Counted from the stretch's first letter, positions 1 to 17,479 are shown. The stretch is DNA of 64,000 nucleotides from a phage (GCA_018509705.1 GCA_018509705.1_3630.1); one strand, 5' to 3'. The notes: generated by a model from the sequence alone, not told the origin. Numbers and translations: made by a program.

Positions 1-1194
1 GCGGTAGGTGTTTGCCTTGGAGTAATAAATTCTTTCAGTTTGACCGTCAGATGTAGTGACATCGTAGAAAATATTACCATAAGTCCTGTTCGTACAGGCT
101 ATAGTTTGGTAAAGTGCTTGGCAAATGTCTTCCGTTGCACCACCAAACACAACCACTTGGAACTTGTAAGGAGGTATACCTTTAGCATCAGTTTTATCAG
201 TGTTGTTGGAGAACACTCTCACTTTCTCAACACCTTTCACCTCGCTTACAGCGCTAAGGATTGCAGGACGGGTAGCCTTCGATGTTAACTGTTTTGTGCT
301 GGAAGCTCTTAAGCGATACTCTGAGTCTTTCTCAACATCCCTGCCCTCATTGAATCTTTCTCTGTTGGTAAGCTTGATAAATCCACTGGGAGTAGGTGAC
401 ATTGTTGTCACGGTTTCTGCCTCTCTTGACAGCTCACCAGCCTCGTTAGCGATAACATCTAGGGTGATAGTTCTTTCCCCTACAATCGGAGATACTCTGA
501 AATCTACCCTACTATTAAGTCCAACTTGATCAAGATTCGAATTGTACCCTATCCACAACGTTCCTGTCAACATATCGATCTGAATCAAATCGTCGTTCAA
601 CAGGGTTGTATTATCGACAATGAACTGCTTAATCTCTCCGTAAAAGCTTGGCAGATCAGAGGAGTCCAGAGACTTATCTGTTAAAACCAGACTTTTTGTT
701 TTGATACTTCCATCTGTCTGGTTGGTGATTTGAAAGTTGTATTTACCAATCCTTAGGTCTGGAGCATTTATTCTGTGGGCAATAAGATTCCCTGCCACCT
801 GCACATCATTGCTAAGAACAAAGTTGCCACTATCCAGCGTATAAGTTTTGGAATCATAAATCATATTGTACGGCACAGTTGTGTTGATTGTCAACTGGCA
901 GGTACCTGATGATTTAGAACGGCCTCTTCGGTAAATACCCTGTCTTCCAAGAAGCTCATCTAGGTAAATACCTTCTGCCCCATACAGCGTCTGTGATGCG
1001 TATACAGATGCTGCCATAAGAATAAGTTGATACTCTCGCTCGTTGAAGATAGTGGTCAGCTTATCTGCAACGGAGTTACTCTGTACGTTGAAGTTTTCGC
1101 CAAAAGCACGGATCAGGCTTTGCTTAGTTTCAACGATTAGGTCATTTAGGGTTGGTATAACGAAACCAGCCTCTGTCAATCCATACTTAGCCAC
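1..1194 (-). CDS. baseplate J-like protein, partial (gene continues beyond the left edge)
   Basis: My own translation of the reverse strand from about 1194 is open to position 1 (VAKYGLTEAGFVIPTLNDL...EKDSEYRLRASSTKQ...); GGAGGA precedes a GTG start; resembles P2 gpJ/T4 gp6 family proteins from memory; not in the ORF track because no stop lies in the window. Confidence 0.4.
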   Translation of the reverse strand, partial: MAKYGLTEAGFVIPTLNDLIVETKQSLIRAFGENFNVQSNSVADKLTTIFNEREYQLILMAASVYASQTLYGAEGIYLDELLGRQGIYRRGRSKSSGTCQLTINTTVPYNMIYDSKTYTLDSGNFVLSNDVQVAGNLIAHRINAPDLRIGKYNFQITNQTDGSIKTKSLVLTDKSLDSSDLPSFYGEIKQFIVDNTTLLNDDLIQIDMLTGTLWIGYNSNLDQVGLNSRVDFRVSPIVGERTITLDVIANEAGELSREAETVTTMSPTPSGFIKLTNRERFNEGRDVEKDSEYRLRASSTKQLTSKATRPAILSAVSEVKGVEKVRVFSNNTDKTDAKGIPPYKFQVVVFGGATEDICQALYQTIACTNRTYGNIFYDVTTSDGQTERIYYSKANTYR

Positions 1195-1261
1195 GTCACT
1201 CCTCCGGTATGAAAATCTCTACAAGGTATTTTACCAAATTTTGTAACAATAGTCAATCTGA

Positions 1262-1292
1262 GCATAAAAATAAACCCCGCCGAAGCGGGGCT
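1262..1292 (-). terminator. hairpin plus T-run terminator after the 1199-aa fibre gene
   Basis: ccccgcttcggcgggg hairpin followed by TTTATTTTTAT on the minus strand. Confidence 0.55.
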
Positions 1293-1299
1293 TTAAAGG

Positions 1300-4200
1300 T
1301 TAGTCGTGAGACTCGTTCCAAGGTCCCTGGAAGCTTGAGTTAGAACGACTAACGATCACAGTGGGACAGGAGATTGTGACACCTGTCACGCTAGACGTTG
1401 ACCACGGTGTGTAAATCTCGATAACAATGTCTATAGTTTGTTCACCCAGACCTGTTATCCCTACCGCACACATGCCGTTGTTGTCGTTAAAATACTTCTT
1501 GCCAGCAAGGATCTGATGACCAGCTATCCATGCATTCAATTGGGAGCTGGCAAGAGTACCATTCAGTTTAAAGAAGAATGTTACGTTCTTACCCTGACCT
1601 GAAACGTTATCTACGTATCTCCACCTCCAACGGCAAACCCTTTGCTGGGAGTTATATACTGGAGCACAATCCCCGTAAGTCCTGTGTGCAACAATTGCAC
1701 CTTCGAACTGGTTAGCGCGGATAACAGAAGCTTCTACACGACCACGGAAGGTACCTCCGGTTGCATCTATGGTGCCTCTAAAGCTACCATTATTGGCATA
1801 AACATCACCACGGAAGGTACCACTAGTGGCGTTAACTGCCCCTGTGAAGTTACCAGAACTGGCGTTGATGTTGCCTTTCACCCACACATCCATAAATTGG
1901 GCGTGCCCGTTCTTGTTAATATACCAACCGTATTGATGGTACCCGTTGCCATCGTAGTTGTTTGACGAAATTTCTTGTGCGATCTTGGCAGAGGAGATCG
2001 TGCCATTCTCTATAAAAGCGTCTTTCAAGAACGCTTGGTTATTCTTGATTGCGAAAGCAAGGGTTGCTGTGCCGTTGCCAGGATTGTACACCGCAAAGTT
2101 GTTTGCACTAACCATAAAGTATGATTGAACTTGTCCTCCAGACCCCTCCATGCCCAGCTGGATACCTGCCACATATTTATTACCATGGCTGTCAACCTGA
2201 ATCTTAGCTCCCCACTGAGCATCTATTTTACCCTCAAGTGTTGTTACAGCTTTAGAGGTATTAGATACTGTAGCCCTAAGCTCATCAATATTACCCATTT
2301 CGTCAACAATTTCTTGTTTTGCAGAGGTAAGTTCTTGACGGATCGCTGTGGCTGTATTATTAACAAGATCAACTGTTGTACTATTAGTTTCTTGAATAGA
2401 TGCTTGCAGATTGGCAACCTCTTTCTGCACATCATCTTCCAGCTCGGTGATCTTCCCTGTAGCTGCCACCAGATCCTGCTTAATAGCTTCCGTTGTCTTA
2501 TTTAGCAGGTCGGTTGTTGCCTTGTTGGTTTCTTGAATAGAGGAGTTAAGTTTGCTCTCAGTGTTCTTCAACTCTTCCCGCAGAGTACCTTGAGTTGCAG
2601 TTATTTGCTCACTCAATGCTTGAGTTTTACGATTAACAAGATCAACGGTTGATCTATTTGTTGTCTCGATTAGTGACCCAAGCCTACCAGACTCTGCTGC
2701 AAGTTTATCGTCAAAGGATTGCTGAGCTGCTACCAGCTTACTGTTAAGGGCAGAAATTTCTCCATTAACCCCTGTAAATTTTTCTGTCGTCTCTCTGACA
2801 ACACCCTCTATTGTATCTCCAAGCTCTTCAAAAATGCTAGTAACACGGTCATTGACTGCACCAACATTTTTATCCATTTCCTTGACTGCATTATCGAGAT
2901 TGGCGGTAAGCTCTTTATAAGTCTCTGTCTTTTTGAACTCAGCATCAATCTGAGGCATCAAATCTTCAATAGAGGTATAGCAGCGTGCAGCGCATTCTAC
3001 AAACTGAGAACTACCAAAAGCGTTTGTGGTTCGAATATACCAATAATAAACCTTATCGTTCTGCAGACCTTCAGATGTCCAAGTTGAACCAACACCCATA
3101 CGGGTGGCTTTTGAAGTAACGGTTGCATCACTAGTGTCTGGCAACCTTGTCATACCAGATGTCCAAAAGTCATACTGGGTGCTTACACTTGCTAAATCCC
3201 TACTGTGTGGGATCAAGGTGATAGCGAAGTATCCCTGCTTAACCTCTACAGAAACCGGAGCTTCAGGTGCCTGAATGTTAAACTCGCAGTACGCTTCTGG
3301 AGATACACCACCTTTATAAGATGTTGCAACCACGGTTGCTGTGTATGACCCTTTGGTCAAGCCTTCTACTCGGACAAACTGCTCAACTGTCTGTGCTGTC
3401 CAAACAATCTCTCCGTTCTTTCTTACCTGTACAATATTTTGAGCGTAAGTCCCAACGTTGTCCCAAGCCAAAACACCGTGAGTCACTTCTCCAGCTTGGA
3501 GAACGGAATATCTGAAGTTTTGTGGTTGAGCTACACCAGATGGAGATATCGGAATATCTACATCGCCAGAATCCGGAAGTTGCCCTGTGGCATCATTCCA
3601 CTCTTTAGCATCTTGACGAAGTTTTACCTTGACACCCCCCTTTTTGGTAAACTCCCATTCAAGAACTCTCATTTCTTGGCCCACTATACCAATACTTGGG
3701 AGGTCCATTGTAACGTAACGACCAGGTTTAAATTTGAAACCTCGCATATTGCAGGTGACTTCAATAATCCTGCCAGCTCTGGCACGTCTTAGGAAGATTG
3801 CAGAAACACGCTGAGCTTGATAAGGACTGGTAACAAAGCGATAATCTATATCGATTATCTTTCTTTCTCCATCCTTCTCTATCCACTCTGGGACAAACAC
3901 TGATGGAAAATCTGTTTCAGAATACCCTTTGGTCGGACTAGTGAATCTGCCAGTTATTGTGTTGGATCTTTTGTCAAATGAGGCTTCCGGATAGATCTTG
4001 ACCTCACCACAGACACAATCCTCACTCAGTGTCATTGTTGCCGGGCCATAGTATGCACCAACCAACAAACCATACTTACCAGCTACATAACTAAGATCTG
4101 CACCGCAAGCTTTCAGCATTTCTGCCATAATACTTGCTGGGGCCTCATCCATGTCAAACTCACCGTTAATGGTGTAACGGCGCTCACTGGTTCCGTCTGC

Positions 4201-4899
4201 GTTTTTTACCGCCTCGTCGCATATGTTGGCAGCCTCCTTGAAGGACTCCCAGTTGATGGTTTCGTCAGGACATTTAAGGTACGTTCTTAAATAGTCTAGG
4301 ATCACCAAGGCAGCGTTATTGGTATACACCTCTTTACTGATACGAGGATCATAGCATTTTTTACCAACCTTGACGAGTGTAACGTTTGGCAACCCAAAAG
4401 GAAACTTGTTAGGGTCAAACCTGAAGCTGGCACGTAGCCAACTGATCCCTCTACCTATCATGTCAGGTGACCATGATGGGCAGTGTGTGCCCATGAAAGG
4501 ATCAGATGTTTTTCTGTCGTTATGTAGCTCCCACGATACCAAATCCCCATACGAGGAAATAGGATTACCGTCGATAAGTATATCTTCTACACCTTCCAGA
4601 GGGTGATTGGCAAGAACAATAGCACAGTGGAGAGTTCTGTCTCTATCCTGCTCCAAAAACGCAAGCAATCCGGATGTGCGTGTCTTCCCATACACTACAG
4701 AGCAAGGTGCAGCAGAAGATCTGAGAAGCTTTTGTCTATCTTGCTGACTTCTGTAAGATTTGTTGCCCTCAAAAATCTTATCCAGAGTTCTGGTGGTAAC
4801 AGTGTTCAGGCTGTCAGCCAGAGCTGCCTTGGATGCGTTCCAGTCATAACTTGAAGATCTTGCAGAAGCAACGATGTTATCAATCATTGCAATTGGCAT
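1300..4899 (-). CDS. large tail fibre / host-specificity protein (1199 aa) with central heptad repeats and C-terminal G-T-F-R-G repeats
   Basis: ORF track; three roughly 35-aa repeats (SIQETN..TTDLLNKTTEAIKQDL) and SGNFTG/SGTFRG/GSFRG/GTFRG repeats; terminator hairpin just downstream. Confidence 0.6.
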   Translation of the reverse strand: MPIAMIDNIVASARSSSYDWNASKAALADSLNTVTTRTLDKIFEGNKSYRSQQDRQKLLRSSAAPCSVVYGKTRTSGLLAFLEQDRDRTLHCAIVLANHPLEGVEDILIDGNPISSYGDLVSWELHNDRKTSDPFMGTHCPSWSPDMIGRGISWLRASFRFDPNKFPFGLPNVTLVKVGKKCYDPRISKEVYTNNAALVILDYLRTYLKCPDETINWESFKEAANICDEAVKNADGTSERRYTINGEFDMDEAPASIMAEMLKACGADLSYVAGKYGLLVGAYYGPATMTLSEDCVCGEVKIYPEASFDKRSNTITGRFTSPTKGYSETDFPSVFVPEWIEKDGERKIIDIDYRFVTSPYQAQRVSAIFLRRARAGRIIEVTCNMRGFKFKPGRYVTMDLPSIGIVGQEMRVLEWEFTKKGGVKVKLRQDAKEWNDATGQLPDSGDVDIPISPSGVAQPQNFRYSVLQAGEVTHGVLAWDNVGTYAQNIVQVRKNGEIVWTAQTVEQFVRVEGLTKGSYTATVVATSYKGGVSPEAYCEFNIQAPEAPVSVEVKQGYFAITLIPHSRDLASVSTQYDFWTSGMTRLPDTSDATVTSKATRMGVGSTWTSEGLQNDKVYYWYIRTTNAFGSSQFVECAARCYTSIEDLMPQIDAEFKKTETYKELTANLDNAVKEMDKNVGAVNDRVTSIFEELGDTIEGVVRETTEKFTGVNGEISALNSKLVAAQQSFDDKLAAESGRLGSLIETTNRSTVDLVNRKTQALSEQITATQGTLREELKNTESKLNSSIQETNKATTDLLNKTTEAIKQDLVAATGKITELEDDVQKEVANLQASIQETNSTTVDLVNNTATAIRQELTSAKQEIVDEMGNIDELRATVSNTSKAVTTLEGKIDAQWGAKIQVDSHGNKYVAGIQLGMEGSGGQVQSYFMVSANNFAVYNPGNGTATLAFAIKNNQAFLKDAFIENGTISSAKIAQEISSNNYDGNGYHQYGWYINKNGHAQFMDVWVKGNINASSGNFTGAVNATSGTFRGDVYANNGSFRGTIDATGGTFRGRVEASVIRANQFEGAIVAHRTYGDCAPVYNSQQRVCRWRWRYVDNVSGQGKNVTFFFKLNGTLASSQLNAWIAGHQILAGKKYFNDNNGMCAVGITGLGEQTIDIVIEIYTPWSTSSVTGVTISCPTVIVSRSNSSFQGPWNESHD

Positions 4900-5336
4900 T
4901 AATACCTCCAGACATCAACAACGATAGAATCTTTCATGTCGAACATAAAGACCCCTTTATCACCTTTCGCCCAAATCTGGTTGTTCCAGAACACACCAGC
5001 GGTGAGCCCGTTCAGACCTTCGAAAATGACAATATCTCCACGCTGAACCTGTTTAGGAGTATCCAGCCGAGTCAGAAAGAGATCAAAAATAGTAGGCAGG
5101 TGTGCGGTTTTGAAACGAAGCATGCACCATCTTTTGCTTTCCAACTCTGTTTTATACGTTCCTTCGAAATTAGAAAGAAAATCTGTTCCGTATTGGGCAT
5201 CAACACACTTAGCTGCAAAGGTGCAACAATCGTGGAATCCCCATTCAAAAGGTATGGTGGCCTCTTCGTCAAATACTTTCCACAATCTTTCTTGCCAGTC
5301 CACTAGACGAGGATGTGTGCTCATTAAACCTCCCAA
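4899..5336 (-). CDS. hypothetical tail-tip protein with WGFHDCC motif (possible NlpC/P60-like cysteine peptidase)
   Basis: ORF track; position immediately upstream of the giant fibre gene; motif similarity only. Confidence 0.3.
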   Translation of the reverse strand: MGGLMSTHPRLVDWQERLWKVFDEEATIPFEWGFHDCCTFAAKCVDAQYGTDFLSNFEGTYKTELESKRWCMLRFKTAHLPTIFDLFLTRLDTPKQVQRGDIVIFEGLNGLTAGVFWNNQIWAKGDKGVFMFDMKDSIVVDVWRY

Positions 5337-5890
5337 ATGATCGGGCGGCTCGCCACCTGATCCACATATTTAAAAAATCTGTCATTATCGTTTCTTGAGC
5401 TGTGGCTTTCCTCCGTGTACCGATAAGGAAAACCTCTTAACCAACTGTTGAAGATGGAAGAGATGGATATGGACAAAGCACTATTCTCCCCTGTCTGAAT
5501 AGCCATATCTGTTATAAGGCCGTCAAACAAGCCATTAGTTGTGACAGGCAGACCATTCTCCATAGCGGTAATGTACAACGTGGCACGACAACCGGAATAC
5601 TCCGTCTTCAGAAGATCACCCACATACTTAGGATCAAACCCGTTCAATGTCGCTACCACAGATCCGAAGTTGGTGGCATCTTTCTCAGACACAGCAGTTA
5701 ACGTTGCTGATCCACCTATCCCTATAAAATGTTGCCCCTCAATTACTACAACACCAGTGCCTGAGCACACCCTGACAGTTCCTGTCGGTAGCTCCAGCTT
5801 TGCAGCAATTAAGATCTCAACACCATCAAGCTCCAGCTTTTCAAGAAATAAATTATCTAATGGCGCTCTGATCATCTTAGAAATCCTCAA
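5324..5890 (-). CDS. hypothetical virion (tail) protein
   Basis: ORF track; operon context between fibre genes. Confidence 0.3.
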   Translation of the reverse strand: MRISKMIRAPLDNLFLEKLELDGVEILIAAKLELPTGTVRVCSGTGVVVIEGQHFIGIGGSATLTAVSEKDATNFGSVVATLNGFDPKYVGDLLKTEYSGCRATLYITAMENGLPVTTNGLFDGLITDMAIQTGENSALSISISSIFNSWLRGFPYRYTEESHSSRNDNDRFFKYVDQVASRPIIWEV

Positions 5891-6467
5891 AGAAGTTGAT
5901 AACTATATTATCACCTTTTTGCATAGCATCGACTTTTTGCTTAATTTTATAAATATCTCTGATATGAAACCTACCCTTCGGGGATTGAGTTATTATCTTC
6001 ATAGTGTCCCCTGCGGCAATAGGTTTTCTAAGTCTTGGAGATATGCTTATAACAGCAGACCCAACACCATCGCTACGCACTGGAGCTGTTACCACTTTCA
6101 ATTCATCATTGACAGATATTTTATCCCCAGCTCTGGCTATGTCTCTGTTTGGCTCCCACCCAACCGTCTTCAAAAAATCGTCGTTACCAGTAGGCCCAAG
6201 GGCGATTGGCTCATTAGCTGTAACTGAGTGACCGTAAGTTTTAATAAGAAAGATGTTTCCATCTTTATACACCTGATCAACAAAGCTCTTAAGCTCTAGC
6301 AACTGTGACTCGCTGATATTGGAAACCGTCAAAGTGCCTTTCCAGTTAGGTGTGGCATAGGTTACTTTTTGCGTTTTACCTGTAAACGGACTTTTAAACG
6401 TAACAATATCTGCCAGCAGCTCCAATCTAATATCTGGAAGGTATCTAGGCCTTTCCCATAAAAACAT
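5877..6467 (-). CDS. hypothetical virion (tail) protein
   Basis: ORF track; operon context. Confidence 0.3.
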   Translation of the reverse strand: MFLWERPRYLPDIRLELLADIVTFKSPFTGKTQKVTYATPNWKGTLTVSNISESQLLELKSFVDQVYKDGNIFLIKTYGHSVTANEPIALGPTGNDDFLKTVGWEPNRDIARAGDKISVNDELKVVTAPVRSDGVGSAVISISPRLRKPIAAGDTMKIITQSPKGRFHIRDIYKIKQKVDAMQKGDNIVINFFEDF

Positions 6468-6529
6468 TGTGCCTCCAGGTTAAACAATCATGATAGTTAT
6501 TTTACCAGATTTTGAGTTAATACGCAATA

Positions 6530-6562
6530 CAAACAAAAAGCCCCCGCCGAAGCGAGGGCAAA
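6530..6562 (-). terminator. hairpin plus T-run terminator after the 1268-aa fibre gene
   Basis: Near-identical motif ccctcgcttcggcggggg followed by CTTTTTGTTTG on the minus strand. Confidence 0.45.
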
Positions 6563-6566
6563 ACAG

Positions 6567-9500
6567 TTACTTCAGTTTCTCTTGCAACCCAGTAACAACC
6601 TCTGTCAATTTTTTAACCTGCTCCTCAAGGGCGGTTATTTTATCGTCCTGTTCTCTGCAAACCTGGACAAGCAAGCCTGTTACGGCTGCGTAATCCACGC
6701 TGTAGAATCTTTCCTCTGTTATCAAAGGAGTTCCATCTTGATCAGGGTTTGGGATTTCCTTTCTTTGCACGAAAGAGCTAACTGCTTCCGGCAGTGCTTC
6801 AAGCACTTCTTGTGCTATAACACCTGCATAAGGCATACCGTTCTCTTTAAGAGTGTAAGTATAACCCTTCATCTTCCGGATAGCTTCTAACGCATCAGGA
6901 ATAACAGATATGTTGTCTTTCAGGTCTCTGTCAGAACTCTGATTGACAGATGTGCAATTCACAGCACCGTTTACAGAAAGATATCTTGATTTATCCGGCA
7001 AGGTACCGCAATGCCATACCCAATTTGCTTGAGACTCGTCAAGAACCTTAAACTCTAACACGTTTGGGCGATCCCCTGTGCTGCCGTTGCCCCAATAATG
7101 GAGTACAGCATCATCTTTAGGCAAGTTATCGGCGTTGGAGGAAAGACCATTAGCACCGACATGAATTTCCAGCTGAGTGCTGTTTTCGCCGAAAGTGTAA
7201 TTAGGTCTTAACTGAATGCCCTTACCAGCATCGTGTCTCCATTCTTCCCAAGTAAAGACATCGCCAACGTAGTTACCAGCACGAGTATATCTGTCGCCAA
7301 AATAGGTGATGTATTCCTGCACACAACCTTGCGGTCTGTTAGCTGTGTTTTTGTAAACAAGCAGTGTACCAGCGTACGGAGCAGGGTAGTGGCGATCTAT
7401 TACAAGTGCGTCAGCGTTTGAACCCTGGTGATAGAAACCTTCACGGCTACCATCGTAGTCATTAAGGTCTTCTGTCCCCAGACCTTGACCACGGTGCTGA
7501 ATAACTTTGTTCCACGCTCTGTGGTTTCCTTGCTCTATGGAACGAGTGTACAGCTGGTCTAAACGACCTGCCATCTGGAAAGCGTAGTTTCCAGAAAATG
7601 CCACAGACAACCCACCAACAACCATTGAACCTTCAGGTCCGTTGACGTTGCCAGCCAGTATTTTTGACGGATTATTATTCCCGAACTGATTGTTCCAATC
7701 TGCACCAGTATGACATACAAAACCGCCAGGGGCTGAGAAAGTACCGTCCTTGTTGAAGTTGTAGAATCTATGAGCTGTGCCTACAACATCGCGAACAATA
7801 ACTTGACCCGCTTCCGGAGTAGATCTGAACTCTGCCTGACCTTTGAGACCAGCACCATTACCGCATTTAGAGGTAAACGTACCGTTAGTCAGATCCTCTG
7901 TCCCATCGGATGCACACTGGAATCCTGCATTAGAGAATAACGCCTTTCTAGGACTGCCGTAGCACAAATAGTCAAGACCGTCTGCCCATAGCTCGACTTT
8001 TGGCATATTCATTTTGCTCATCACAGCATAGCGTTCAGCAGTGCCTATATAGTGCCACTGTGTGCCGCCCCCAGTGTAGAACCCTGAAGTACCTTTGAAG
8101 TCAACAATAGGTCTGGTATTGGTGTTGTTATCTCCAAGAATAGCAAGATTCAAATCTGCTGACTGAAGAGGTGCAACGAACTTAACCCCATCCTGATTGT
8201 CTGTTACAGCCCCAACCTGGTAATCTTGCTCTCTGGTAAACACTTCGACAACATTTCTACTTGCGTATATGCTGACAGGGAAAGCACGAGCCTCTACATA
8301 GAAAGCAACATACTCTTGTTTACCCCTTGTTGGAGCAACCATCCCAAGAAGTGCTTTTTCATTCTGGTAGAAATTTACTACCCCGTAGAAAGAGTCTCCC
8401 CTGTCAGTCCAGCCACCAGTTCTATAGTGACACTGCAGGGTGGCACAGTTCATAGGGTCATTTCCAGATGAAGACCTGGTGACTATAGTAATATCAGTGC
8501 CAGTTGCTGGAGCATAATATGGATCTGTTCTAACGATGATTGGGTAGTATTTACCATCCTCCATCCCTGCGGTTCTTGGCAGTGTTAAGAAATCTTTTAC
8601 ACCTGCGGCTATAGGAACTTTGAACAGATTCTGAGCATCTGCTAAAGTTGTAGCTCCAGTGCCACCTGCGGCGTGAGATAAAGGTTCCCACTTGGCCTTC
8701 CGGTTGTTATAAACACCCCATTCCAGAGTGCCGTTACCGGATTCGTCCATCCCGCCATCCCAGATAACCATCTTGGCGGCTTTCTTGGACCCCCAAAAGC
8801 CTCTTTCTGCTCCTGAACTACGGATCCACTCTCCAAGTCCCCAGTTTGTCAGCTGACCAGTAAGATCCCCAACCTGCATGTATTTAGGACAGTCTAATAC
8901 ACCGTCTTCGCGGAAACCTAAATATCTATGAGTTTCAGATCCTTTTGCACCTTTGTGCAGGTGGATTGTCAACCAAGTCTTATTGTCGTTTCTTACCTCA
9001 GAGTAGATCCTATACCCATGCTCAAGGACACCGTCAGCGCCGTATTTATCCCCATGGAGAATACCTGATGGCGACTTAACCTCAGAAGTGCTTTGAGACA
9101 GGTAAAGGTGCCCGAAGGTAGGGGTATTTCTAGACCCGAGACCGATGTGCGATCTAAAGGTATCATCGTTACGAGGTCTGACCATCGGCTGCCATGCAGT
9201 CCACTGGTTTGTGTTGGCCTGATAGGTTCTCAAATACCAAACATCTACGTTAGAGAATGGGTAGTATTCCTGACGACAACCTGTACCGCCGTTAGCATTG
9301 TTCTGCCAAACAATCAAGTGACCAGCACCAGAACCTGCAGGGTAACCATTTGCCTCAGTTGCATAAGCAGTCATCGGCTGGTAGTATACACCATCCTGAT
9401 TACCAGTCAAGTTATTGATATTGAAATTTGGCTCAAGGGCTGCACGTTGCTTATAGAAAGCCCCGATATTGATACGGACTCCAGCGGCATCTCTGGCCCC

Positions 9501-10373
9501 CGTACCGCCTTGCTCTATAGCAAGAGGTTGCCACGAGACTGTTTGTTGGTTCCACATGCCCCAACGGCCTGTTGCGTCAAGCTGCAAGTACCCTGCCGTG
9601 TTTAAATCATCTCCAGCACGGATAACTGTTCTTGTTGGGTTGTTTGCCTCCAGGCGTTTAAATTCATCACGAAGTGCTATTCTTTTTGTTGTTGCTACAC
9701 CGTTGGTTACTGCGATGGTATACATGGCTCCGGATGTAGCGCCACGGAAAATACCATCAACAGTTGTAGTATCACGACGAGATACCACACCGTTCAGAAA
9801 TTTTTCACCAGCTGCTACAGAAGGGTAGTTGGTGGTTCTTCCCTCTTCAATAACTGCAGGACCCACAAAGTTATCAAGGTGAATAACATCACCTACAGTG
9901 TGCACCGTACCAAAATCTACACGCTGTGCAAGTGCTTTAGCATCGTTAGCTGTCTGAACAGTAACATCCATTACATCCTGGACAGACTGCCCTTCGGCTG
10001 TCATGATCATAGATGCGCCAATGGTAGATTCCAGCTCCTCCCTTAGGGACGGGTCAGTATATACCATCCATGCAGCGTCAGTAATCCCACCATCTGAGTA
10101 CGGTGAAGATAGTGCAGGAACAGTGTGTGGAAATTCGCCTTTCCAACGCAGGTAGAGATCTTCCTCTTCAAAATAGGCAAAATCCATTGGGCCGTTTAAC
10201 TTACCACCTTCCTTAAAGGAGATTACATGAGAAACAGTCCCATCCACATGGACAACATCGCCAATTTTTACACGACGGGTCAGGTCTGGTTGTTGAACAA
10301 CCAGGTAATCATCCTCTGTCACTGCGGTAGTGGCAGGAAGAGATTCAATTCTGACAACTTTAATATCAGCCAT
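6567..10373 (-). CDS. tail fibre/tailspike protein (1268 aa) with C-terminal intramolecular chaperone (peptidase S74-like) domain
   Basis: C-terminus SDRDLKDNISVIPDALEAIRKMKGYTYTLKENG...ITALEEQVKKL is typical of autoproteolytic fibre chaperone domains; N-terminus shares a domain with the 13008-13676 protein. Confidence 0.65.
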   Translation of the reverse strand: MADIKVVRIESLPATTAVTEDDYLVVQQPDLTRRVKIGDVVHVDGTVSHVISFKEGGKLNGPMDFAYFEEEDLYLRWKGEFPHTVPALSSPYSDGGITDAAWMVYTDPSLREELESTIGASMIMTAEGQSVQDVMDVTVQTANDAKALAQRVDFGTVHTVGDVIHLDNFVGPAVIEEGRTTNYPSVAAGEKFLNGVVSRRDTTTVDGIFRGATSGAMYTIAVTNGVATTKRIALRDEFKRLEANNPTRTVIRAGDDLNTAGYLQLDATGRWGMWNQQTVSWQPLAIEQGGTGARDAAGVRINIGAFYKQRAALEPNFNINNLTGNQDGVYYQPMTAYATEANGYPAGSGAGHLIVWQNNANGGTGCRQEYYPFSNVDVWYLRTYQANTNQWTAWQPMVRPRNDDTFRSHIGLGSRNTPTFGHLYLSQSTSEVKSPSGILHGDKYGADGVLEHGYRIYSEVRNDNKTWLTIHLHKGAKGSETHRYLGFREDGVLDCPKYMQVGDLTGQLTNWGLGEWIRSSGAERGFWGSKKAAKMVIWDGGMDESGNGTLEWGVYNNRKAKWEPLSHAAGGTGATTLADAQNLFKVPIAAGVKDFLTLPRTAGMEDGKYYPIIVRTDPYYAPATGTDITIVTRSSSGNDPMNCATLQCHYRTGGWTDRGDSFYGVVNFYQNEKALLGMVAPTRGKQEYVAFYVEARAFPVSIYASRNVVEVFTREQDYQVGAVTDNQDGVKFVAPLQSADLNLAILGDNNTNTRPIVDFKGTSGFYTGGGTQWHYIGTAERYAVMSKMNMPKVELWADGLDYLCYGSPRKALFSNAGFQCASDGTEDLTNGTFTSKCGNGAGLKGQAEFRSTPEAGQVIVRDVVGTAHRFYNFNKDGTFSAPGGFVCHTGADWNNQFGNNNPSKILAGNVNGPEGSMVVGGLSVAFSGNYAFQMAGRLDQLYTRSIEQGNHRAWNKVIQHRGQGLGTEDLNDYDGSREGFYHQGSNADALVIDRHYPAPYAGTLLVYKNTANRPQGCVQEYITYFGDRYTRAGNYVGDVFTWEEWRHDAGKGIQLRPNYTFGENSTQLEIHVGANGLSSNADNLPKDDAVLHYWGNGSTGDRPNVLEFKVLDESQANWVWHCGTLPDKSRYLSVNGAVNCTSVNQSSDRDLKDNISVIPDALEAIRKMKGYTYTLKENGMPYAGVIAQEVLEALPEAVSSFVQRKEIPNPDQDGTPLITEERFYSVDYAAVTGLLVQVCREQDDKITALEEQVKKLTEVVTGLQEKLK

Positions 10374-10408
10374 TCTTTCTCCTGAAAGGGGGCAAACAGC
10401 CCCCTATG

Positions 10409-13006
10409 TTAAAGGTACAATCCACGGTATTGAGCATAAAGGCCCAGGCCGCGAAGGATTTCGCCAGAGTGATAGCCCACCGGATCAGAAACTGCCCAGC
10501 AGCCGTTTAAAACATTATCCCCATTGATGAAGTGGTGCTTTTGCAGTAGCTTCATACAGGCTTCTACAACAATGTCTATTTGAGGTATTGTCTCTGAATA
10601 CCCGCACAGACCTAGCCAGCAGCAACCTGCAAGCCATTCACCTACCACCCACATCCTGTCCCCTCTGTCTTGATAAGAATATCCCCCAGAGGTGTTAAAG
10701 TCTGTAGGCAGATTTCCTGAATGAGATGACTGGAATCTGTTGAGGAACCATGCCCATTTCTGGCAGAACAGGAATAATCTTTCATCAACAGGTTCTTTAT
10801 GTTTCTTGAGCTCATAGATTGTGCGGCACGCAGCAACAAAAGATCTTGACTGGAGCTTAGAGTTATCTACCATCTCCCACCAACCAGTCAGCCCTTCATT
10901 ACCTCTCTGCCATACATAACGCGAGGCAACTGGACCCTCTGTCTTAAATGTATTATTATACCAGACTTGAGCGTCATACAGAAAGCCTATTGTATTTGAC
11001 AATCTATGGCGATCTATGTTTTCTGCACCCATGCAGTATACTGCTGGGTATTGCATGCCAGGGTAGGGCCAATTTGGCTTTTCCTCTAAGAGATAGTTTT
11101 CCTTATCTATCACCTTTCCGGCAGGGAACACACCTGGTGTGTGCCTGTATGCACCTTGCTTGTAGTTTCTGACATAGCAATCACCAACCTTAGCGGTTGA
11201 TTCTGTCTTGCTTGCCATCCATACGCTAAACCATATTAGATAAGCATCCCTATCTGCAATATAGAACTGCGGCAGCGTGTTTACGCAGTACAGATCAAAC
11301 AAGCCATTACCTATCTGCCTGTCGCTTAGGCTGAAATCTACAGAGGTGAGCCCCTTAGGATTAGCAAAGAAAGGTTTAATCTCTTCTTCGGTGTGATGAG
11401 GTTGTGTCGGATCTAGTTTGAAATCTCCTAGAGTAAGAGTTTCTGTTATCCATTGTCCATTAGTGGCATATAGATCAGCATACCATAACCACCTATCTTT
11501 GTCAAGAAATTTGACCCTTACCATCTCATCATCTGATCTATAAGTTACTGAGTTTAAAGAAATCTCTCTCCCAAAATTGAAAGTTACTTTACCTCTTGCT
11601 ATATTACAACGGGTGAAGTTGTCAGAGTGGTTGTAAATGTCGGTATCATACTGCATACTAACACTAGCGCCACCGCTTACGACAATGTTTTCCTCTTTAG
11701 GTAAGAGATACGGATTACCGTCTTTACCAACTACCTCTACGAAATCAGTAACCTTGGCAACTATTTCTGTTACCTCTGCCCCTCCAAAAGGAACCCCTAT
11801 CCTGTACTGTTTTTTGTTATTGTTGCCATCATTAAGGATGAAATGTGGCTGGAACAGAACCCCTTCTCCTCCGAAATTCATAACAATTTCAGCATCTCTG
11901 CCTATTTTGTATGTAGTCCCTTTTTGAATTATTTCGCAAGGCTGGCGTGCGTTCATTCTAAAATTGATATACCCGTCACTGTCCCTGCTCATGGCAGGAA
12001 CTGTTCCTGCAACAAGGCAAGTACCATCTGTAAACGGTGCCTTAATCAACGTGGTCTTCCTAAACAGTTTGTCGTAGGCGTTTATATCACTGAAATTAAG
12101 CAATTTGTTGTAAGACTGTTTAAACGCGGTGTAATACTTTTCCTCACCTGTCAAGGTGTAGAGTTGATAACAAGCGTCACACCACATTTCTTCCCCGTCC
12201 AACTCTGGGGCCTGATTATCTGCAACCACGTTTATGGGATTTACAATTACAGGGGATCCTGCAGGTATCACCGATCCACCCTGCTCTTGAGGTAATCTTA
12301 CACAATAGGTCACCTTGTGGCTGCCTGTAACACCCTTATCTTGTAATTGGATTGTGCCGAACTCTACAGACGTATGACCACTGTCGGCTATGCTACCGTT
12401 AGCCCAATAGCGGTTACCATCCCATGCTATGTACCACTCAACCCACCAACTTAATCCGGATGTTGTCCAATCTGGGTTAGCATCTGTGCCACCGTAAACA
12501 TCAGAGTCTACAGTGTTTCTTCCTAACACACCGTTATACGCTTGGAATGCCTTGTCAAGGTATTCCCCCCATGTCGGAGATCCAGCTGGGATTTTTCCTC
12601 TACCGTTGGTAAAAGACACCACCACATCTTTAAACCCACCATGTGATGGAACCCCATCTGTGGATAGAGGGTAGTGGGACAATCTTTGCATTTTACTTTC
12701 TACTGCATATGCACCCAGAAGATGACTATTGTAAGCTTCCCAAGCATCTTTTGCCCTATCCAGATAGAAATCGCTTTTCGATGCCCTGTATGCTTCAATG
12801 TATCCCAGAATCAACACAGCTTGGGACTCATGCATTGCCCAATCATTATTTATCTTATTACCTGCCCACCCTGCAGCTATAAGACCATCAGGGTTTACTA
12901 ACTTATTTTGTGTAGGGGTGTTGGTAATACCTGTGTTGTTATCGAGGCACTTCCTGTGCCCCTCAATCATCTGAAATACGTTATCAATGTTATGTTGAAT
13001 ACGCAT
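10409..13006 (-). CDS. large tail-associated protein (865 aa), possible receptor-binding or depolymerase-type protein
   Basis: ORF track; size and position between fibre genes; no motif recognised with certainty. Confidence 0.35.
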   Translation of the reverse strand: MRIQHNIDNVFQMIEGHRKCLDNNTGITNTPTQNKLVNPDGLIAAGWAGNKINNDWAMHESQAVLILGYIEAYRASKSDFYLDRAKDAWEAYNSHLLGAYAVESKMQRLSHYPLSTDGVPSHGGFKDVVVSFTNGRGKIPAGSPTWGEYLDKAFQAYNGVLGRNTVDSDVYGGTDANPDWTTSGLSWWVEWYIAWDGNRYWANGSIADSGHTSVEFGTIQLQDKGVTGSHKVTYCVRLPQEQGGSVIPAGSPVIVNPINVVADNQAPELDGEEMWCDACYQLYTLTGEEKYYTAFKQSYNKLLNFSDINAYDKLFRKTTLIKAPFTDGTCLVAGTVPAMSRDSDGYINFRMNARQPCEIIQKGTTYKIGRDAEIVMNFGGEGVLFQPHFILNDGNNNKKQYRIGVPFGGAEVTEIVAKVTDFVEVVGKDGNPYLLPKEENIVVSGGASVSMQYDTDIYNHSDNFTRCNIARGKVTFNFGREISLNSVTYRSDDEMVRVKFLDKDRWLWYADLYATNGQWITETLTLGDFKLDPTQPHHTEEEIKPFFANPKGLTSVDFSLSDRQIGNGLFDLYCVNTLPQFYIADRDAYLIWFSVWMASKTESTAKVGDCYVRNYKQGAYRHTPGVFPAGKVIDKENYLLEEKPNWPYPGMQYPAVYCMGAENIDRHRLSNTIGFLYDAQVWYNNTFKTEGPVASRYVWQRGNEGLTGWWEMVDNSKLQSRSFVAACRTIYELKKHKEPVDERLFLFCQKWAWFLNRFQSSHSGNLPTDFNTSGGYSYQDRGDRMWVVGEWLAGCCWLGLCGYSETIPQIDIVVEACMKLLQKHHFINGDNVLNGCWAVSDPVGYHSGEILRGLGLYAQYRGLYL

Positions 13007-13007
13007 C

Positions 13008-13676
13008 TTAGATAGCTCCTGCGATAATCAGTGCCCCGTACCAAGTTAACCCGTTGTCGTAGGTTTCCAACTTGAAAATATCTGTTGCACCAGCTGTAAA
13101 TGTTAGGATAGGATCTCTTCCGTAGGACCATTTAACATTACCAGGCCAATAGACTTTGTTGCCGCCAGAGGTCTGAGTAATGCATACGGTTATAGTTCTC
13201 GCCACCCCTTCAAGACCTTCTGTTTGATTTTCAAAAGAGATTGTGGTATTTGAAGTTAGTCGAACCTTAAAGGTATCCGCCACTTCAAGATCCATATCAA
13301 GCTGACCACCGATAGATCCGTAATCAACTATTCTGCCAGAAGAAGTTGCAGCAAGCTCACCAAAAACAGACCAGGCGTTTGCAGACACACCCCCAGCACC
13401 CTCTACAGTGGAGTCTGGGAGGATTATTTTAGGATAATCCCCGTTCCACGTGTAGTAGCGCTTAGTTTCTGGATCATAAGCAAAGTCCTTCTTGCTCTTA
13501 AGATAACCACCCTCTGTGAAATAGACTATTTTAGTAATGCTGAGATCGTTGACAACATCATCAATCTTAGCCTTTCTTGTCCCATCAGTCTGGTTGACAA
13601 CCAAGAAGTCATCACTCAGGACTGTTTCTGCATCTTCAAGATCTGGAATTGGTATTGTAGGATAAGCTACAGCCAT
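13008..13676 (-). CDS. tail fibre N-terminal anchor-domain protein (222 aa)
   Basis: N-terminal region (DDFLVVNQTDGTRKAKIDDVV...FTEGGYLKSKKDFAYDPE) parallels the N-terminus of the 1268-aa fibre (DDYLVVQQPDLTRRVKIGDVV...FKEGGKLNGPMDFAYFEE). Confidence 0.4.
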   Translation of the reverse strand: MAVAYPTIPIPDLEDAETVLSDDFLVVNQTDGTRKAKIDDVVNDLSITKIVYFTEGGYLKSKKDFAYDPETKRYYTWNGDYPKIILPDSTVEGAGGVSANAWSVFGELAATSSGRIVDYGSIGGQLDMDLEVADTFKVRLTSNTTISFENQTEGLEGVARTITVCITQTSGGNKVYWPGNVKWSYGRDPILTFTAGATDIFKLETYDNGLTWYGALIIAGAI

Positions 13677-13685
13677 GATTTCTCC

Positions 13686-14402
13686 TTAGTTAACATCAAT
13701 AGCACGACCAGACTGGTTGGCAATAGCCTCATCATTGGAGGTAGCAATAACACCAGAGTATTCGCGCTCATCTGGAGCAAGCGTCCAGGTATTGCGGTTA
13801 ATGGTTTGTTCTGCCTCAGTCATCAGCAGATCTTTATCCTGAGTCAACAGAGAGCCTACAGGGATCGGGTTTTCCATCTCAGGACCAGCATACTGGTTCC
13901 ACCATGTGGCATCTCCGGTTCTAGGCAATCTGAAGTTGATCAGGTAGTACAGTTTATTAGCCCACTTAATCCAACCTTCATCATCACAGAGAGAGGTTGT
14001 CCCAGAATCAGGCTGTGGGTAGGTAAACTGATCAAGACCTACAAAAGCCAGCCTTACAATCTCGTTCTCTTTGGTAACAACCTCAAAGAACGCTTGGTAT
14101 GTTCTCGATCTTCGATCCATGGTAGACTGGAAGTTTACGATGTTTAGCACATCCGGCTCTTGTCTTGCCACTTCCATAATCTTGTTATCAAGAACAGTCT
14201 TCATGACCTTCTTACTGAGAAAGTCCATATAAGGGAAGCCAAACAACTCGTCAAAGTACCAGCTCCCCTTCCACGTATTAAACCTCATCCACAAGCGCTG
14301 GCGTAGACTTACCTGGTTTGAATCTATCAACTCAAGACCTTTGTCTATCGCCAAATCGCCTGTCTGTGGGTCCATCAATATATCACTATAAAGCGTAGCC
14401 AT
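13686..14402 (-). CDS. hypothetical baseplate protein
   Basis: ORF track; context. Confidence 0.3.
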   Translation of the reverse strand: MATLYSDILMDPQTGDLAIDKGLELIDSNQVSLRQRLWMRFNTWKGSWYFDELFGFPYMDFLSKKVMKTVLDNKIMEVARQEPDVLNIVNFQSTMDRRSRTYQAFFEVVTKENEIVRLAFVGLDQFTYPQPDSGTTSLCDDEGWIKWANKLYYLINFRLPRTGDATWWNQYAGPEMENPIPVGSLLTQDKDLLMTEAEQTINRNTWTLAPDEREYSGVIATSNDEAIANQSGRAIDVN

Positions 14403-14414
14403 GAAAGCCCTCTA

Positions 14415-15092
14415 TTAGTGCGGTCCACTTGTCTCGCCATCAGGGCAAGAGTGGGTATGACCTTTATATTCTGCATAGAATGAATCCAAATCCACACCAG
14501 CAGCAGTTATAATTCTACCAGATGGGTCTATTGTGGCACCATTCATTCTGATATTTCCATCCACAGCAGCTCGCAAATTGGCAGCACCGTTAGTGAAAGA
14601 AAACTCCCCGCTGCTGTCGCACCGTAATGTCCCACCCGGTGTTTGAAGCTCAAAATCTCCAGAAGGTGTCAGTTTAAAATAGACCTTATCATTCCATAAC
14701 TCTACGTTATCAGGATCGATCTGTAAAGCGTTTGAGTCTGAATGAACAGAGGTTATTGCCCACCCAGGAAACAGGCCGTGAGTTTGTTGATCGTCGTTAT
14801 TGTTTTCATTTCTCTCTGAAAACTGCAATCCTACAACATCACCAGCTTTAATAGGAAGTGTTAACCTTGCCTTTCCACTGTTTGCAGACATCACCTGAAT
14901 TGGAACGTCATAGATAAGAGGGTATCTCTCCACATCTCCGTCATCAAACGTGGTTTCAGCTATTGGCTGCACGGCTGCAGAAGGGATACTGTAGTCTACA
15001 CTGACAACTCTGGCCCTGATACTGGTGTGGTAGTCCCTCATTATTTTTTCTATAAAGGATCTTACAGCAGCATCTTTCCTATTTATTGCCAT
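14415..15092 (-). CDS. baseplate central spike protein (gpV-like) with C-terminal H-T-H-S tip motif
   Basis: 225-aa ORF ending ...YAEYKGHTHSCPDGETSGPH; HxH-type motifs occur at spike tips of P2 gpV-like proteins. Confidence 0.4.
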   Translation of the reverse strand: MAINRKDAAVRSFIEKIMRDYHTSIRARVVSVDYSIPSAAVQPIAETTFDDGDVERYPLIYDVPIQVMSANSGKARLTLPIKAGDVVGLQFSERNENNNDDQQTHGLFPGWAITSVHSDSNALQIDPDNVELWNDKVYFKLTPSGDFELQTPGGTLRCDSSGEFSFTNGAANLRAAVDGNIRMNGATIDPSGRIITAAGVDLDSFYAEYKGHTHSCPDGETSGPH

Positions 15093-16096
15093 TATACCTC
15101 CTCAGTTTTGTCAACAACCCCACCGACTGTTTCCCCAAGGCCAAGCTCTGTAGTGTAATCACCACCTTCTATGGTGCCCTTATGATGCACCGTGATCACC
15201 TTATAGAAGCCTGTATATTGCTTGCTTTTAAGATAAATAGTGGACTCTGGGAGGATAGCTCCGTTAAGGCATGTGGTTACAGTAAGGCCAACATCCTCTC
15301 TCGGGTTTTTCTTTTTCTTTTTAGATGTCGAACCACCTTTGGCAGCAGCTTTAGCTTTTCGTTTTTTAGCAGGTTCTGGGTTTTTAGGGGTAGGAGATCC
15401 GTGCATCCCAGACTCTGCACTTATTTCAAACACAGAGTCTTTGAACCTTTTTCCAACCTTGGTCCAATACAAAGCCCCATCCTGAACGCTAAATGTTGAG
15501 TTGGTCAGCCTTGCAAACCTGCGGAGGTTCTCTGCAGTGTTTCCAGAGAAAGCCATAGAGTATTGCAAAGTCTGGTTTCCAAAACCAACAACCCTACCTT
15601 TTGGCAAGTTCATATCCTTCAGTAGGTCATTAAGCACAGAGTTCAGAGGTGTACCTTTCTGATAAGATCTTGTGCTTTGGCACTTAATGATGTTCTCAGT
15701 GCCATCCCCAAAGATGAACTTAGTTTTTCTGGTCGGACCTTCCCACCTGTCTTCAACAAACTCCACAGTTCCGGAGAATATCAACTGGTTCTCATTATCA
15801 TAGCCAGCTTCAAACATAACTGCAAGGGCATCAGCCTGATGCATATCCAGATAGTTAACTGTATCGTCAGACAGGTTGTAAACTGTCACATAACCTTTGT
15901 TTGGCTCTTTGGTATTGTCCTTTTGTATGTCAAACTCTATATTGGCAGCACCAGTGTCTGAGCTAACTTCATAAACTCCGGAATCACTCTCCCCTTTCTT
16001 TTCAACAGATTTTGGGATATTGGTTTTTGATTTACCGCCATGGTCTACAGGACGACCAAACAATAATCGCCATGTTCTACGTCTGTACTCTGCCAT
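15092..16096 (-). CDS. hypothetical baseplate/tail protein with Lys-rich linker
   Basis: ORF track; context. Confidence 0.3.
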   Translation of the reverse strand: MAEYRRRTWRLLFGRPVDHGGKSKTNIPKSVEKKGESDSGVYEVSSDTGAANIEFDIQKDNTKEPNKGYVTVYNLSDDTVNYLDMHQADALAVMFEAGYDNENQLIFSGTVEFVEDRWEGPTRKTKFIFGDGTENIIKCQSTRSYQKGTPLNSVLNDLLKDMNLPKGRVVGFGNQTLQYSMAFSGNTAENLRRFARLTNSTFSVQDGALYWTKVGKRFKDSVFEISAESGMHGSPTPKNPEPAKKRKAKAAAKGGSTSKKKKKNPREDVGLTVTTCLNGAILPESTIYLKSKQYTGFYKVITVHHKGTIEGGDYTTELGLGETVGGVVDKTEEV

Positions 16097-16476
16097 TATT
16101 CTAACCCTTGCTGTTCCTTGTAAAGATCAACCGGGGTGCCGTATACAAGTTGTAGCTCAGATCTCGCCCCAAGGTTATATCTTCCAACCCTGCCCCAATA
16201 TTGATCGTCTTTAAACGACAGCGCCATCAATCTACCTTTCGGTAAATCGTCTCTGTAATGCAGTCCGTCTAAAATATCTTGACAAGCTGTTACTTTTCTG
16301 GTTACTAAAGGGCTGTCACCTACCGGACCAAGAGATAACCACCAGGACTCATCCCTCTCATTCCATTGCATACGCATTTCATACGTCTCATTGTCTAAAA
16401 CAACACGCATGGTTTGATCAGGAAAGCCGTCAATGTCCCACACAAAGGTGATTATGCACCAATCTTTAAGTTCCAT
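16096..16476 (-). CDS. hypothetical virion protein
   Basis: ORF track; translationally coupled to neighbours. Confidence 0.3.
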   Translation of the reverse strand: MELKDWCIITFVWDIDGFPDQTMRVVLDNETYEMRMQWNERDESWWLSLGPVGDSPLVTRKVTACQDILDGLHYRDDLPKGRLMALSFKDDQYWGRVGRYNLGARSELQLVYGTPVDLYKEQQGLE

Positions 16477-16488
16477 TACACGCTCCCC

Positions 16489-17400: not shown

Positions 17401-17439
17401 CTAAATATTGTATCATAAAATAGCCGTTTTTACAACACC

Positions 17440-17467
17440 GATAAAATAAAGGGGGCCGGAGCCCCCT
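17440..17467 (-). terminator. hairpin plus T-run terminator after the tape measure gene
   Basis: gggggccggagccccc hairpin followed on the minus strand by TTTATTTTAT. Confidence 0.5.
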
Positions 17468-17479
17468 ATGTGCTGTTTA

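Follow-up and report, generated by a model that had tools for sequence, protein, structure and literature searches.

The 64,000-nucleotide (nt) stretch of phage DNA analysed here (GCA_018509705.1, sequence GCA_018509705.1_3630.1; the window hereafter) carries, at positions 1300-4899, a 1199-amino-acid (aa) open reading frame (ORF) that an earlier note, made from the sequence alone, had described as a repeat-bearing fibre in a possibly lambda J-like neighbourhood. The ORF was confirmed on the minus strand, and we found this one "fibre" gene to be the end of a whole siphovirus tail-tip cassette that forms its own operon beside a wedge gene. The window is 99.4% identical to Escherichia phage HeinrichReichert (Bas58), an rV5-like myovirus of the genus Vequintavirus. 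Phages of the rV5 type are among the commonest E. coli phage isolates and are candidates for therapy and biocontrol. The gene is carried by 117 phage records and is the orthologue of rV5 gp37 and of bas58_0031, to which it is 99.4% identical at the nucleotide level; names in use for it are "lateral tail fiber protein with fibronectin type III domain", "central tail fiber J" and "tip attachment protein J". The gene, its J-like annotation and its presence in the virion are already known, since rV5 gp37 (1279 aa) was reported in 2013 with COG4733 / Phage-tail_3 and was found in virions by mass spectrometry (PMC3606486). The same window encodes a sheath (phrog_205), a tube, a tape measure, a myovirus-type hub (phrog_196), a spike and wedge subunits (phrog_6, phrog_120), with the baseplate-J-type wedge genes also inside the 64 kb, so that the co-occurrence of sheath, tube and baseplate J suspected in the earlier note holds. 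The four genes of the cassette and the parts of the last one are as follows, in the direction of transcription, with the evidence for each in brackets.

5877-6467, minus strand: 196-aa distal tail (Dit)-like protein in the position of lambda gpM or T5 pb9 (phrog_1302 "distal tail protein", E 2e-50)
5324-5875, minus strand: 183-aa hub piece (ATG start) in the position of gpL (phrog_2048 "tail protein", E 9e-68)
4899-5324, minus strand: 141-aa DUF6950 protein with an FHDCC motif in the position of gpK (Pfam PF22262, E 1.2e-33)
1300-4899, minus strand: 1199-aa J-like fibre or tip-attachment-type structural protein (ORF, Pfam, phrog_31, lambda gpJ in the PDB)
4759-4899, minus strand: N-terminal 47 aa of the J-like protein, hydrophilic and specific to the myovirus copy (hydropathy, homology boundary)
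3535-4758, minus strand: hub-type domains of the siphovirus baseplate-hub, Tal and gpJ class, residues ~48-455 (homology, profile, Foldseek)
2944-3534, minus strand: two immunoglobulin (Ig)/fibronectin type III (FN3)-like domains, residues 456-652 (Ig_J_second above and Ig_J below the Pfam cutoff)
2221-2943, minus strand: helical or coiled-coil shaft, the polymorphic cassette of the gene, residues ~653-893 (helical-repeat matches, allele comparison)
2278-2682, minus strand: three protein-level repeats of 44, 47 and 44 aa, residues 740-874 (local alignment, shuffles)
1849-2268, minus strand: Phage_Tail_Tip (DUF1983-type) domain, residues 878-1017 (PF09327, 132.8 bits against a cutoff of 22, E 9.2e-39)
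1741-1854, minus strand: four GxFxG repeats with a period of 11 aa, residues 1016-1053, probably a beta-helical neck (repeat analysis)
1303-1722, minus strand: C-terminal 140-aa all-beta domain, residues 1060-1199, a candidate receptor-binding tip (structural model, distribution)

The lambda-J-like tail-tip reading of the 1199-aa protein is supported. The family phrog_31 ("central tail fiber J") matched at E 6e-165, and lambda gpJ was retrieved from the PDB at E 6e-27 over the Ig and tip domains, with the two-Ig region aligned to gpJ residues 666-833 in the PDB sequence search and the Phage_Tail_Tip region to residues 842-991. Ig_J_second (PF24489) matched residues 547-652 with 106 bits against a cutoff of 27 (E 1.3e-30), and Ig_J (PF24421) gave a partial match to residues 493-545 with 24.4 bits against a cutoff of 29. 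Pfam Phage-tail_3 fell below threshold here (12.8 bits) and is recorded for many homologues at 52-60% identity. The protein is not the equivalent of lambda gpJ itself: the NCBIfam model lambda_TipJ scored 151.7 bits against a cutoff of 1950, and profile positions 665-1018 alone were matched.

The earlier note had proposed comparing the N-terminal part with J-type profiles, and held that a lack of tail-tip similarity would tell against its idea; besides the Ig_J_second, Phage_Tail_Tip and phrog_31 matches, the hub part matches as well. A 350-aa N-terminal profile built from ten homologues retrieved tail-tip hubs, best of all T5 pb3 (residues 264-609, E 1.8e-10) and then the T1 tip protein 9l9p_S (E 3.8e-8), with weaker matches to another J-like tip protein (2.4e-3), lambda gpJ (0.04) and the megatron 6tba_8A (0.065) of the Rhodobacter capsulatus gene transfer agent (RcGTA). 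An AlphaFold2 (AF2) model of residues 1-660, made with 22 sequences at 49-58% identity, reached a mean predicted local distance difference test (pLDDT) score of 57.9 and a predicted template modelling (pTM) score of 0.36. When this low-confidence model was searched with Foldseek, the top fifteen matches were all tail-tip hub or central-fibre proteins (E 9e-21 to 1e-5), from lambda, DT57C/T5, T1, JBD30 and RcGTA, among them lambda gpJ (9e-21), pb3 (2e-19) and 6tba_8A (5e-8). The TM-scores were low (0.17-0.26) and the model is poor, and we therefore read these matches as suggesting shared domains and not a global fit.

The three small genes upstream, one of them with an HDCC motif, had reminded the earlier reader of lambda M/L/K/I/J. 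All three are there, and they are coupled to the ORF by 1-nt overlaps. For the 196-aa family, the sole PDB match of the profile was the distal tail protein of DT57C (8hqz_H), a weak one at E 0.026. The profile of the 183-aa family matched T5/DT57C pb3 residues 45-176 (E 4.3e-5 and 1.6e-4), so we take this protein to be a split-off N-terminal hub piece, as lambda gpL is. An alignment of 10 DUF6950 homologues showed F.WG..DC and GD, which recall NlpC/P60 proteins, to be invariant, with no conserved His at the expected position. The DUF6950 profile retrieved CwlO and MepS weakly (E 0.14-0.27), and hhalign of the family against lambda gpK aligned FxWGxxDC and QRGDxV at E 0.016 with a probability of 2.8%, which is a motif-level similarity. 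Judged from these alignments, DUF6950 may be related to C40 peptidases while being atypical or lacking catalytic activity; it was not mentioned in any paper found in our literature searches.

Direct searches for the lambda proteins gave less. PDB sequence searches and NCBIfam found nothing with the three small proteins, the lambda M, L and K Pfam families did not match them at E up to 10, and hhalign against single lambda sequences gave E 0.063 over 21 columns for gpM and E 0.44 over 8 columns for gpL. There is no gpI-type gene between the K and J positions, and none is possible because the DUF6950 stop overlaps the J-like start at 4899. The likeness to lambda thus survives as a layout of roles, for which the M/L/K/J analogy is sound, and not as membership in the M, L and K families or as a counterpart of gpI.

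Outside Vequintavirus, the closest relatives of the cassette as a whole are found in siphoviruses. Each of the four genes has a homologue after the tape measure in Nonagvirus ChristophMerian (bas19_0016-0019), where the order is unchanged, with identities of 31% for the Dit-like protein, 37% for the hub piece, 47% for DUF6950 and 54% for the J-like protein, and pairwise E-values from 4e-28 to 0. We examined eight further siphoviruses, with hosts in Pantoea, Serratia, Salmonella, Vibrio, Pseudomonas, Roseobacter and Acinetobacter, and seven of them have a tape measure followed by genes for ~196 aa, ~190 aa, DUF6950 and a J-like protein; the eighth, IME_AB3, has no separately annotated Dit-like gene. 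Homology of the J-like protein covers residues 48-1044, the hub part included, and over residues 48-660 identity to the J-like tail-tip proteins of Queuovirinae reaches 52-59%, the 59% being to a Seuratvirus-type protein. The J proteins of Queuovirinae (Nonagvirus/Seuratvirus) share with the window the Ig domains, the Phage_Tail_Tip domain and a QWG..(Q/K)..VD.(H/N)GNKYVAG block. Unlike in the window, their cassette lies directly after the tape-measure gene and builds the tail tip, and their J protein has a transmembrane-like N-terminus, has a short helical linker without TN..T.DL.N repeats, and stops ~30 aa past the tip domain, with the receptor-binding protein encoded separately downstream. 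A location directly after the tape measure of a non-contractile tail, which marks the J class, is not found in the window, where the tape-measure gene lies at 17480-19816 and nine genes separate it from the cassette.

Other tail tips resemble the cassette in part. The lambda gpM-gpL-gpK-gpI-gpJ series has the same layout of Dit, split hub piece, C40-like protein and large hub-plus-fibre protein, and gpJ shares Ig_J_second, Phage_Tail_Tip and the presence of a C-terminal domain after the tip domain, with the lambda tip complex as the best Foldseek match; lambda differs in having gpI, and the window in having a long coiled coil and a myovirus as the phage that carries it. T5/DT57C pb9 and pb3 are matched by the profiles (the pb9-like Dit at 0.026, pb3 at 45-176 and at 264-609), but the T5 hub is one polypeptide, whereas that of the window is split over two genes, and pb3, being followed by pb4 and pb5, carries no Phage_Tail_Tip fibre. 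RcGTA g12-g15 (Dit, hub, NlpC/P60 peptidase and megatron) follow the same four-gene logic with marginal sequence similarity, and the 183-aa homologue in phage MR15 carries a DUF2163 annotation, a further point of likeness to RcGTA; in contrast to RcGTA, no GTA_TIM domain was detected in the window, and DUF6950 has no conserved catalytic His.

One change relative to the siphovirus copies is at the N-terminus of the J-like protein. Homology to siphovirus J begins at residue 48, and the 47 aa before it are hydrophilic, with a grand average of hydropathy (GRAVY) of -0.15 and 10 charged residues. The same stretch, the first 45-50 residues, is transmembrane-like in all nine siphovirus homologues (GRAVY 0.4-1.6, best 19-aa window 1.7-2.4), and seven of the nine have at most one charged residue there. 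The hydrophobic N-terminus of ~45-50 aa that is a trait of the Queuovirinae-type cassette is therefore absent from the window protein, which retains from the siphovirus N-terminus the initial MP.A(I/M)I alone. The hydrophilic segment is kept in a lineage ~85% identical overall. Taken together, the loss of the hydrophobic N-terminus and its conserved replacement are a sequence-level clue to a changed role.

The ends of the cassette are marked by two similar spacers.

6498-6559, minus strand: upstream boundary, with a terminator-like hairpin (6559-6540) and a promoter-like AAATCTGGTAAAATA (6512-6498) (motif search)
1227-1293, minus strand: downstream boundary ahead of the wedge gene, with a terminator-like hairpin (1293-1272) and a promoter-like TTGACT-17-TAAAAT / AAATTTGGTAAAATA (1256-1227)

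The hairpins share CGCTTCGGCGGGG, and each is followed by a promoter-like AAAT(C/T)TGGTAAAATA and then a GGAGG site. Within the 64 kb both motifs occur at the two cassette ends and nowhere else, against a chance expectation of 0.01-0.04, and the two spacers align over their full length with 67 identical positions over ~110. The operon thus bounded belongs to the baseplate/fibre gene block and has the wedge gene directly downstream of it. In Seunavirus SSE121 the corresponding site, between the fibre genes and the wedge gene, holds just one terminator-plus-promoter-like spacer and no cassette; Certrevirus phiTE and the phi92-like PATM have no cassette at that site either. Cryo-electron microscopy (cryo-EM) of phi92 found hub, spike and wedge complete, with no protein of this kind (PMC13450770).

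In the phage collection, homologues of the 183-aa protein and of the J N-terminus were either at least 95% identical, in Vequintavirus genomes of 130-143 kb, or at most 60% identical, with none between; in the sampled rows the latter come from siphoviruses of 32-85 kb. The same gap between at least 95% and at most 60% identity was seen in a search of 5.8 billion proteins. Across the 117 genomes the N-terminal identity is at least 98%. We would like to note that one contig filed under E. coli (JZQG01000004, GCA_002973135, positions 1-18552; locus L017) belongs to a Vequintavirus-like lineage with ~85% aa identity in the J-like protein. This lineage, known from bacterial and metagenome assemblies, has the same fibre/baseplate synteny and an ungapped 1199-aa protein.

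The shaft of the J-like protein matches Apolipoprotein and SMC-type helical-repeat families and contains the three repeats that the earlier note had seen in the central coiled coil. All units share the core L..SI.(E/T)TN.(A/S/T)T.DL.N..T.A(L/I)..(Q/E)(L/I), and we regard the repeats as real because their pairwise local BLOSUM62 scores of 72-90 far exceed the maximum of 31 obtained in 2000 shuffles of the region. The details of the earlier description did not hold: the units are 44-47 aa long and not about 35, they lie at 2278-2682 and not at 2400-2830, and neither "near-identical" nor "DNA-level" applies, since they are 32-40% identical in aa and 52-61% in nt pairwise and Tandem Repeats Finder (TRF) returned nothing. 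TRF and an exact-seed repeat finder detected no DNA-level tandem repeats in the shaft region, and the sole DNA echo of the repeats is a 31-nt pair at 87% identity (2359-2389 / 2632-2662). By their divergence, the shaft repeats are old.

Repeat number and shaft length vary among relatives. Across the genus the flanks (660 aa at the N-terminal end, 320 aa at the C-terminal end) show ~99% identity, and between them lie discrete shaft alleles that are ~40% identical to that of the window. Lengths were counted in 60 of the 117 records, spread over many laboratories.

1174 aa, two repeat cores: typing phage 14 allele, seen once
1199 aa, three repeat cores: window-type allele, in ~21 of the 60 sampled records
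1279 aa, four repeat cores: rV5-type allele, in ~29 of the 60
1381 aa, six repeat cores: BP9-type allele, in 7 of the 60

The shafts of the four alleles are 221, 246, 326 and 428 aa long and, computed at 0.148 nm per residue, would span ~33, 36, 48 and 63 nm if fully helical. Gene and synteny are the same in rV5, BP9, typing phage 14 and the window, and the repeat number is not invariant; invariance was what the earlier note had named as a point against itself. That the length classes are assembly artefacts is unlikely because three of them recur in many independent isolates.

As to how the lengths arose, the earlier suggestion of recombinational length variation by the repeats is right in that copy number varies, and probably wrong for most differences in so far as it implies recent slippage of units. 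Recent tandem duplication was rejected as a source of the variation because the units of the six-repeat allele are just 43-64% identical in nt. Most of the variation looks instead like an exchange of whole coiled-coil alleles by way of the conserved flanks. The gene of typing phage 14 is the rV5-type gene shortened by 105 aa, with the junction of the deletion in a 13-nt identity (AAGCCACTGTGGA) common to two repeat cores; its allele is either a real between-repeat deletion or an assembly collapse.

Two database records have to be kept apart from these alleles. In the 129-kb record of Escherichia phage V18 (KY683736; locus L006, 2501-5244) the gene appears as a 691-aa "tip attachment protein J" and a 178-aa piece, and the wedge gene is short as well. 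The short span was rejected as a genuine allele since the neighbouring genes are fragmented too, and it looks like an assembly or annotation problem and no natural short allele. In MN850578 (Escherichia phage nomo) the gene is 3601 nt long, against 3600, and its annotation splits it into three pieces named "putative tail fiber"; this is likely a frameshift or sequencing error.

Beyond the tip domain, the G-T-F-R-G repeats that had been noticed near the C-terminus proved to be the four GxFxG units at 1741-1854, and in all the protein of the window extends ~185 aa past the end of the Nonagvirus protein, a further hint of a changed role. The last 140 aa were found, among 50,697 phage records, in the 117 Vequintavirus records alone, at 90-100% identity, and vary more than the first 660 aa do. 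A search of 1.84 billion representative proteins with the C-terminal stretch gave eight matches, including P0127, a 1484-aa J-like protein (55% identity) that shares the C-terminal domain and also ends in ESHD; its coiled coil is longer and unrelated, and its GxFxG units are fewer, which shows as an alignment gap of 27 aa. Since P0127 is an otherwise different fibre, the C-terminal tip domain appears to move between J-type fibres. A word-indexed homologue search gave one match for the C-terminal domain and three near-identical ones for the 183-aa protein. The AF2 model of the C-terminal 160 aa is all-beta and of low confidence (pLDDT 50), and a fold search with it returned no match at E 0.001 or better; weak matches at E ~1e-3 to 1e-2 were to carbohydrate-binding modules and lambda gpJ C-terminal constructs. 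The C-terminal domain is likely the receptor-binding tip, by analogy to lambda gpJ and to T1-like J proteins, which carry C-terminal extensions (BASEL paper).

We propose that the genus descends from a phage that took up a Queuovirinae-type tail-tip cassette of siphoviruses as a self-contained four-gene operon, and that its place became the terminator-promoter spacer immediately ahead of the baseplate wedge gene. The J-like protein would then have stopped serving as the axial tip through which DNA exits and would have become an accessory trimeric fibre, with the cassette proteins assembling as they do in a siphovirus tip. Its hub-type head, together with the Dit-like and hub-piece proteins, may act as an adaptor that attaches the fibre off-axis on the baseplate, and the Ig domains, the coiled-coil shaft, the Phage_Tail_Tip / GxFxG beta-helix and the C-terminal beta domain would project a receptor-binding tip. 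The coiled-coil allele, with its 2, 3, 4 or 6 cores, would set the distance of that tip, and alleles would be swapped by recombination in the near-identical flanks, with an occasional deletion between repeat cores. That the gene encodes an exapted accessory receptor-binding fibre is the best-supported reading, and we consider it reasonably probable. More tentative, and somewhat more open to doubt than to belief, is the wider claim that a complete siphovirus tip complex (Dit ring, split hub, NlpC/P60-like protein and J) was exapted as an off-axis recognition organelle of the baseplate, that its membrane- or lumen-associated N-terminus was discarded, that its reach is tuned by alleles of 2-6 repeats, and that it is one of the fibres of rV5-like phages.

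Several points weigh against the accessory-fibre reading. Our literature searches found no paper that places the J-like protein on the virion, and cryo-EM of the Vequintavirus phages Bas49 and Bas54 resolved three of nine annotated fibres, close to the baseplate, and did not locate the J-like one (PMC12143355). The rV5 proteomics lists gp37 and not gp38-40 (PMC3606486), for which reason incorporation of the three small proteins into the virion is putative. As an adaptor at a lateral position, a hexameric ring of Dit would be unusual, and the receptors published for these phages, primary and terminal (ECA/NGR glycan, lipopolysaccharide core), are assigned to other fibres. The AF2 models of residues 1-660 and of the C-terminal 160 aa are of low confidence, as given above, and the Dit-like and NlpC/P60-like labels combine the weak PDB profile matches with PHROG and Pfam labels.

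The cassette could instead still form an axial, lambda-like tip, that is, a central fibre on or below the myovirus hub and spike with a part in channel formation. All four tip-complex genes are kept and conserved, the hub domains are 52-59% identical to those of working siphovirus tips, and the authors of RBPseg note that such an N-terminal region is often seen among central tail fibres. We nevertheless judge an axial tip unlikely: genes for a tube initiator, a hub (phrog_196) and a spike are present in the phage itself, and their orthologues occupy the axis in the phi92 cryo-EM; nine genes lie between the cassette and the tape measure; the hydrophobic N-terminus of every siphovirus homologue examined has been lost; and the sister genera do without the cassette, the solved phi92 baseplate being complete without it. 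The opposite simplification would make the protein an ordinary lateral tail fibre with borrowed J-type Ig and tip domains, and the three small genes would serve baseplate, fibre or lysis, without relation to it. Fibres often shuffle their domains, and the BASEL labels ("lateral tail fiber protein with fibronectin type III domain", "cell wall hydrolase", "baseplate protein", "tail fiber protein") would suit this, but it is made quite improbable by homology that extends over residues 48-1044 and takes in the hub part, and by the three small genes, each of which has a homologue between tape measure and J, with the order preserved, in the siphoviruses examined.

Mounting away from the baseplate, for instance as collar or neck whiskers held by a ring-forming Dit-like protein round the tail, strikes us as very unlikely. 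The long coiled coil does resemble fibritin-like whiskers, and the fibre was not seen near the baseplate in the Bas49/Bas54 maps; against this, the operon lies within the baseplate/fibre gene block, directly upstream of the wedge gene, and homology to collar or whisker proteins is absent. The cassette might also be a leftover of horizontal transfer, decaying or non-structural, which would be consistent with its foreign origin and with gp38-40 not having been reported in the rV5 proteome. This is hardly credible, and indeed close to refuted, given intact and tightly coupled ORFs, the N-terminal identity of at least 98% in 117 genomes, the ungapped alignment and shared synteny of the ~85% lineage, and the detection of gp37 in virions.

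With the accessory fibre as the preferred reading, for three elements of the above we found no description in the searchable literature: the homology of the whole cassette to siphovirus tail tips together with the duplicated boundary element and the empty sites of sister genera, the loss of the hydrophobic N-terminus, and the series of 2, 3, 4 and 6 shaft repeats. The cassette is a clear natural case of module transfer between tail types, and its being missing from sister genera with solved baseplates turns it into a concrete assignment problem. The natural series of shafts (1174, 1199, 1279 and 1381 aa with near-identical ends) suits tests of fibre length against adsorption and marks safe splice points for fibre engineering.

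Upstream of the cassette lie further fibre genes and a spike gene.

6567-10373, minus strand: 1268-aa fibre with Tail_spike_N and a C-terminal Peptidase_S74 chaperone domain
10409-13006, minus strand: 865-aa "tail protein" (phrog_2871), no Pfam match
13008-13676, minus strand: 222-aa Tail_spike_N protein
14415-15092, minus strand: 225-aa protein, the central spike in the Bas58 annotation

The first three are parts of the branched fibre set of these phages. The 225-aa protein had no PHROG match at E 1e-5 or better, and its homologue in L017 has a precomputed Pfam match to a spike N-terminal family. Eighteen GenBank records (MG0656xx) are named "Campylobacter phage", with C. jejuni as host, and show 95-99% identity to Vequintavirus genomes of E. 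coli (135-143 kb); they are probably mislabelled or derived from contaminating coliphages. Finally, the sign of the GC skew flips near window position ~38000, from negative before to positive after, which fits a switch from minus-strand to plus-strand genes near 38 kb.

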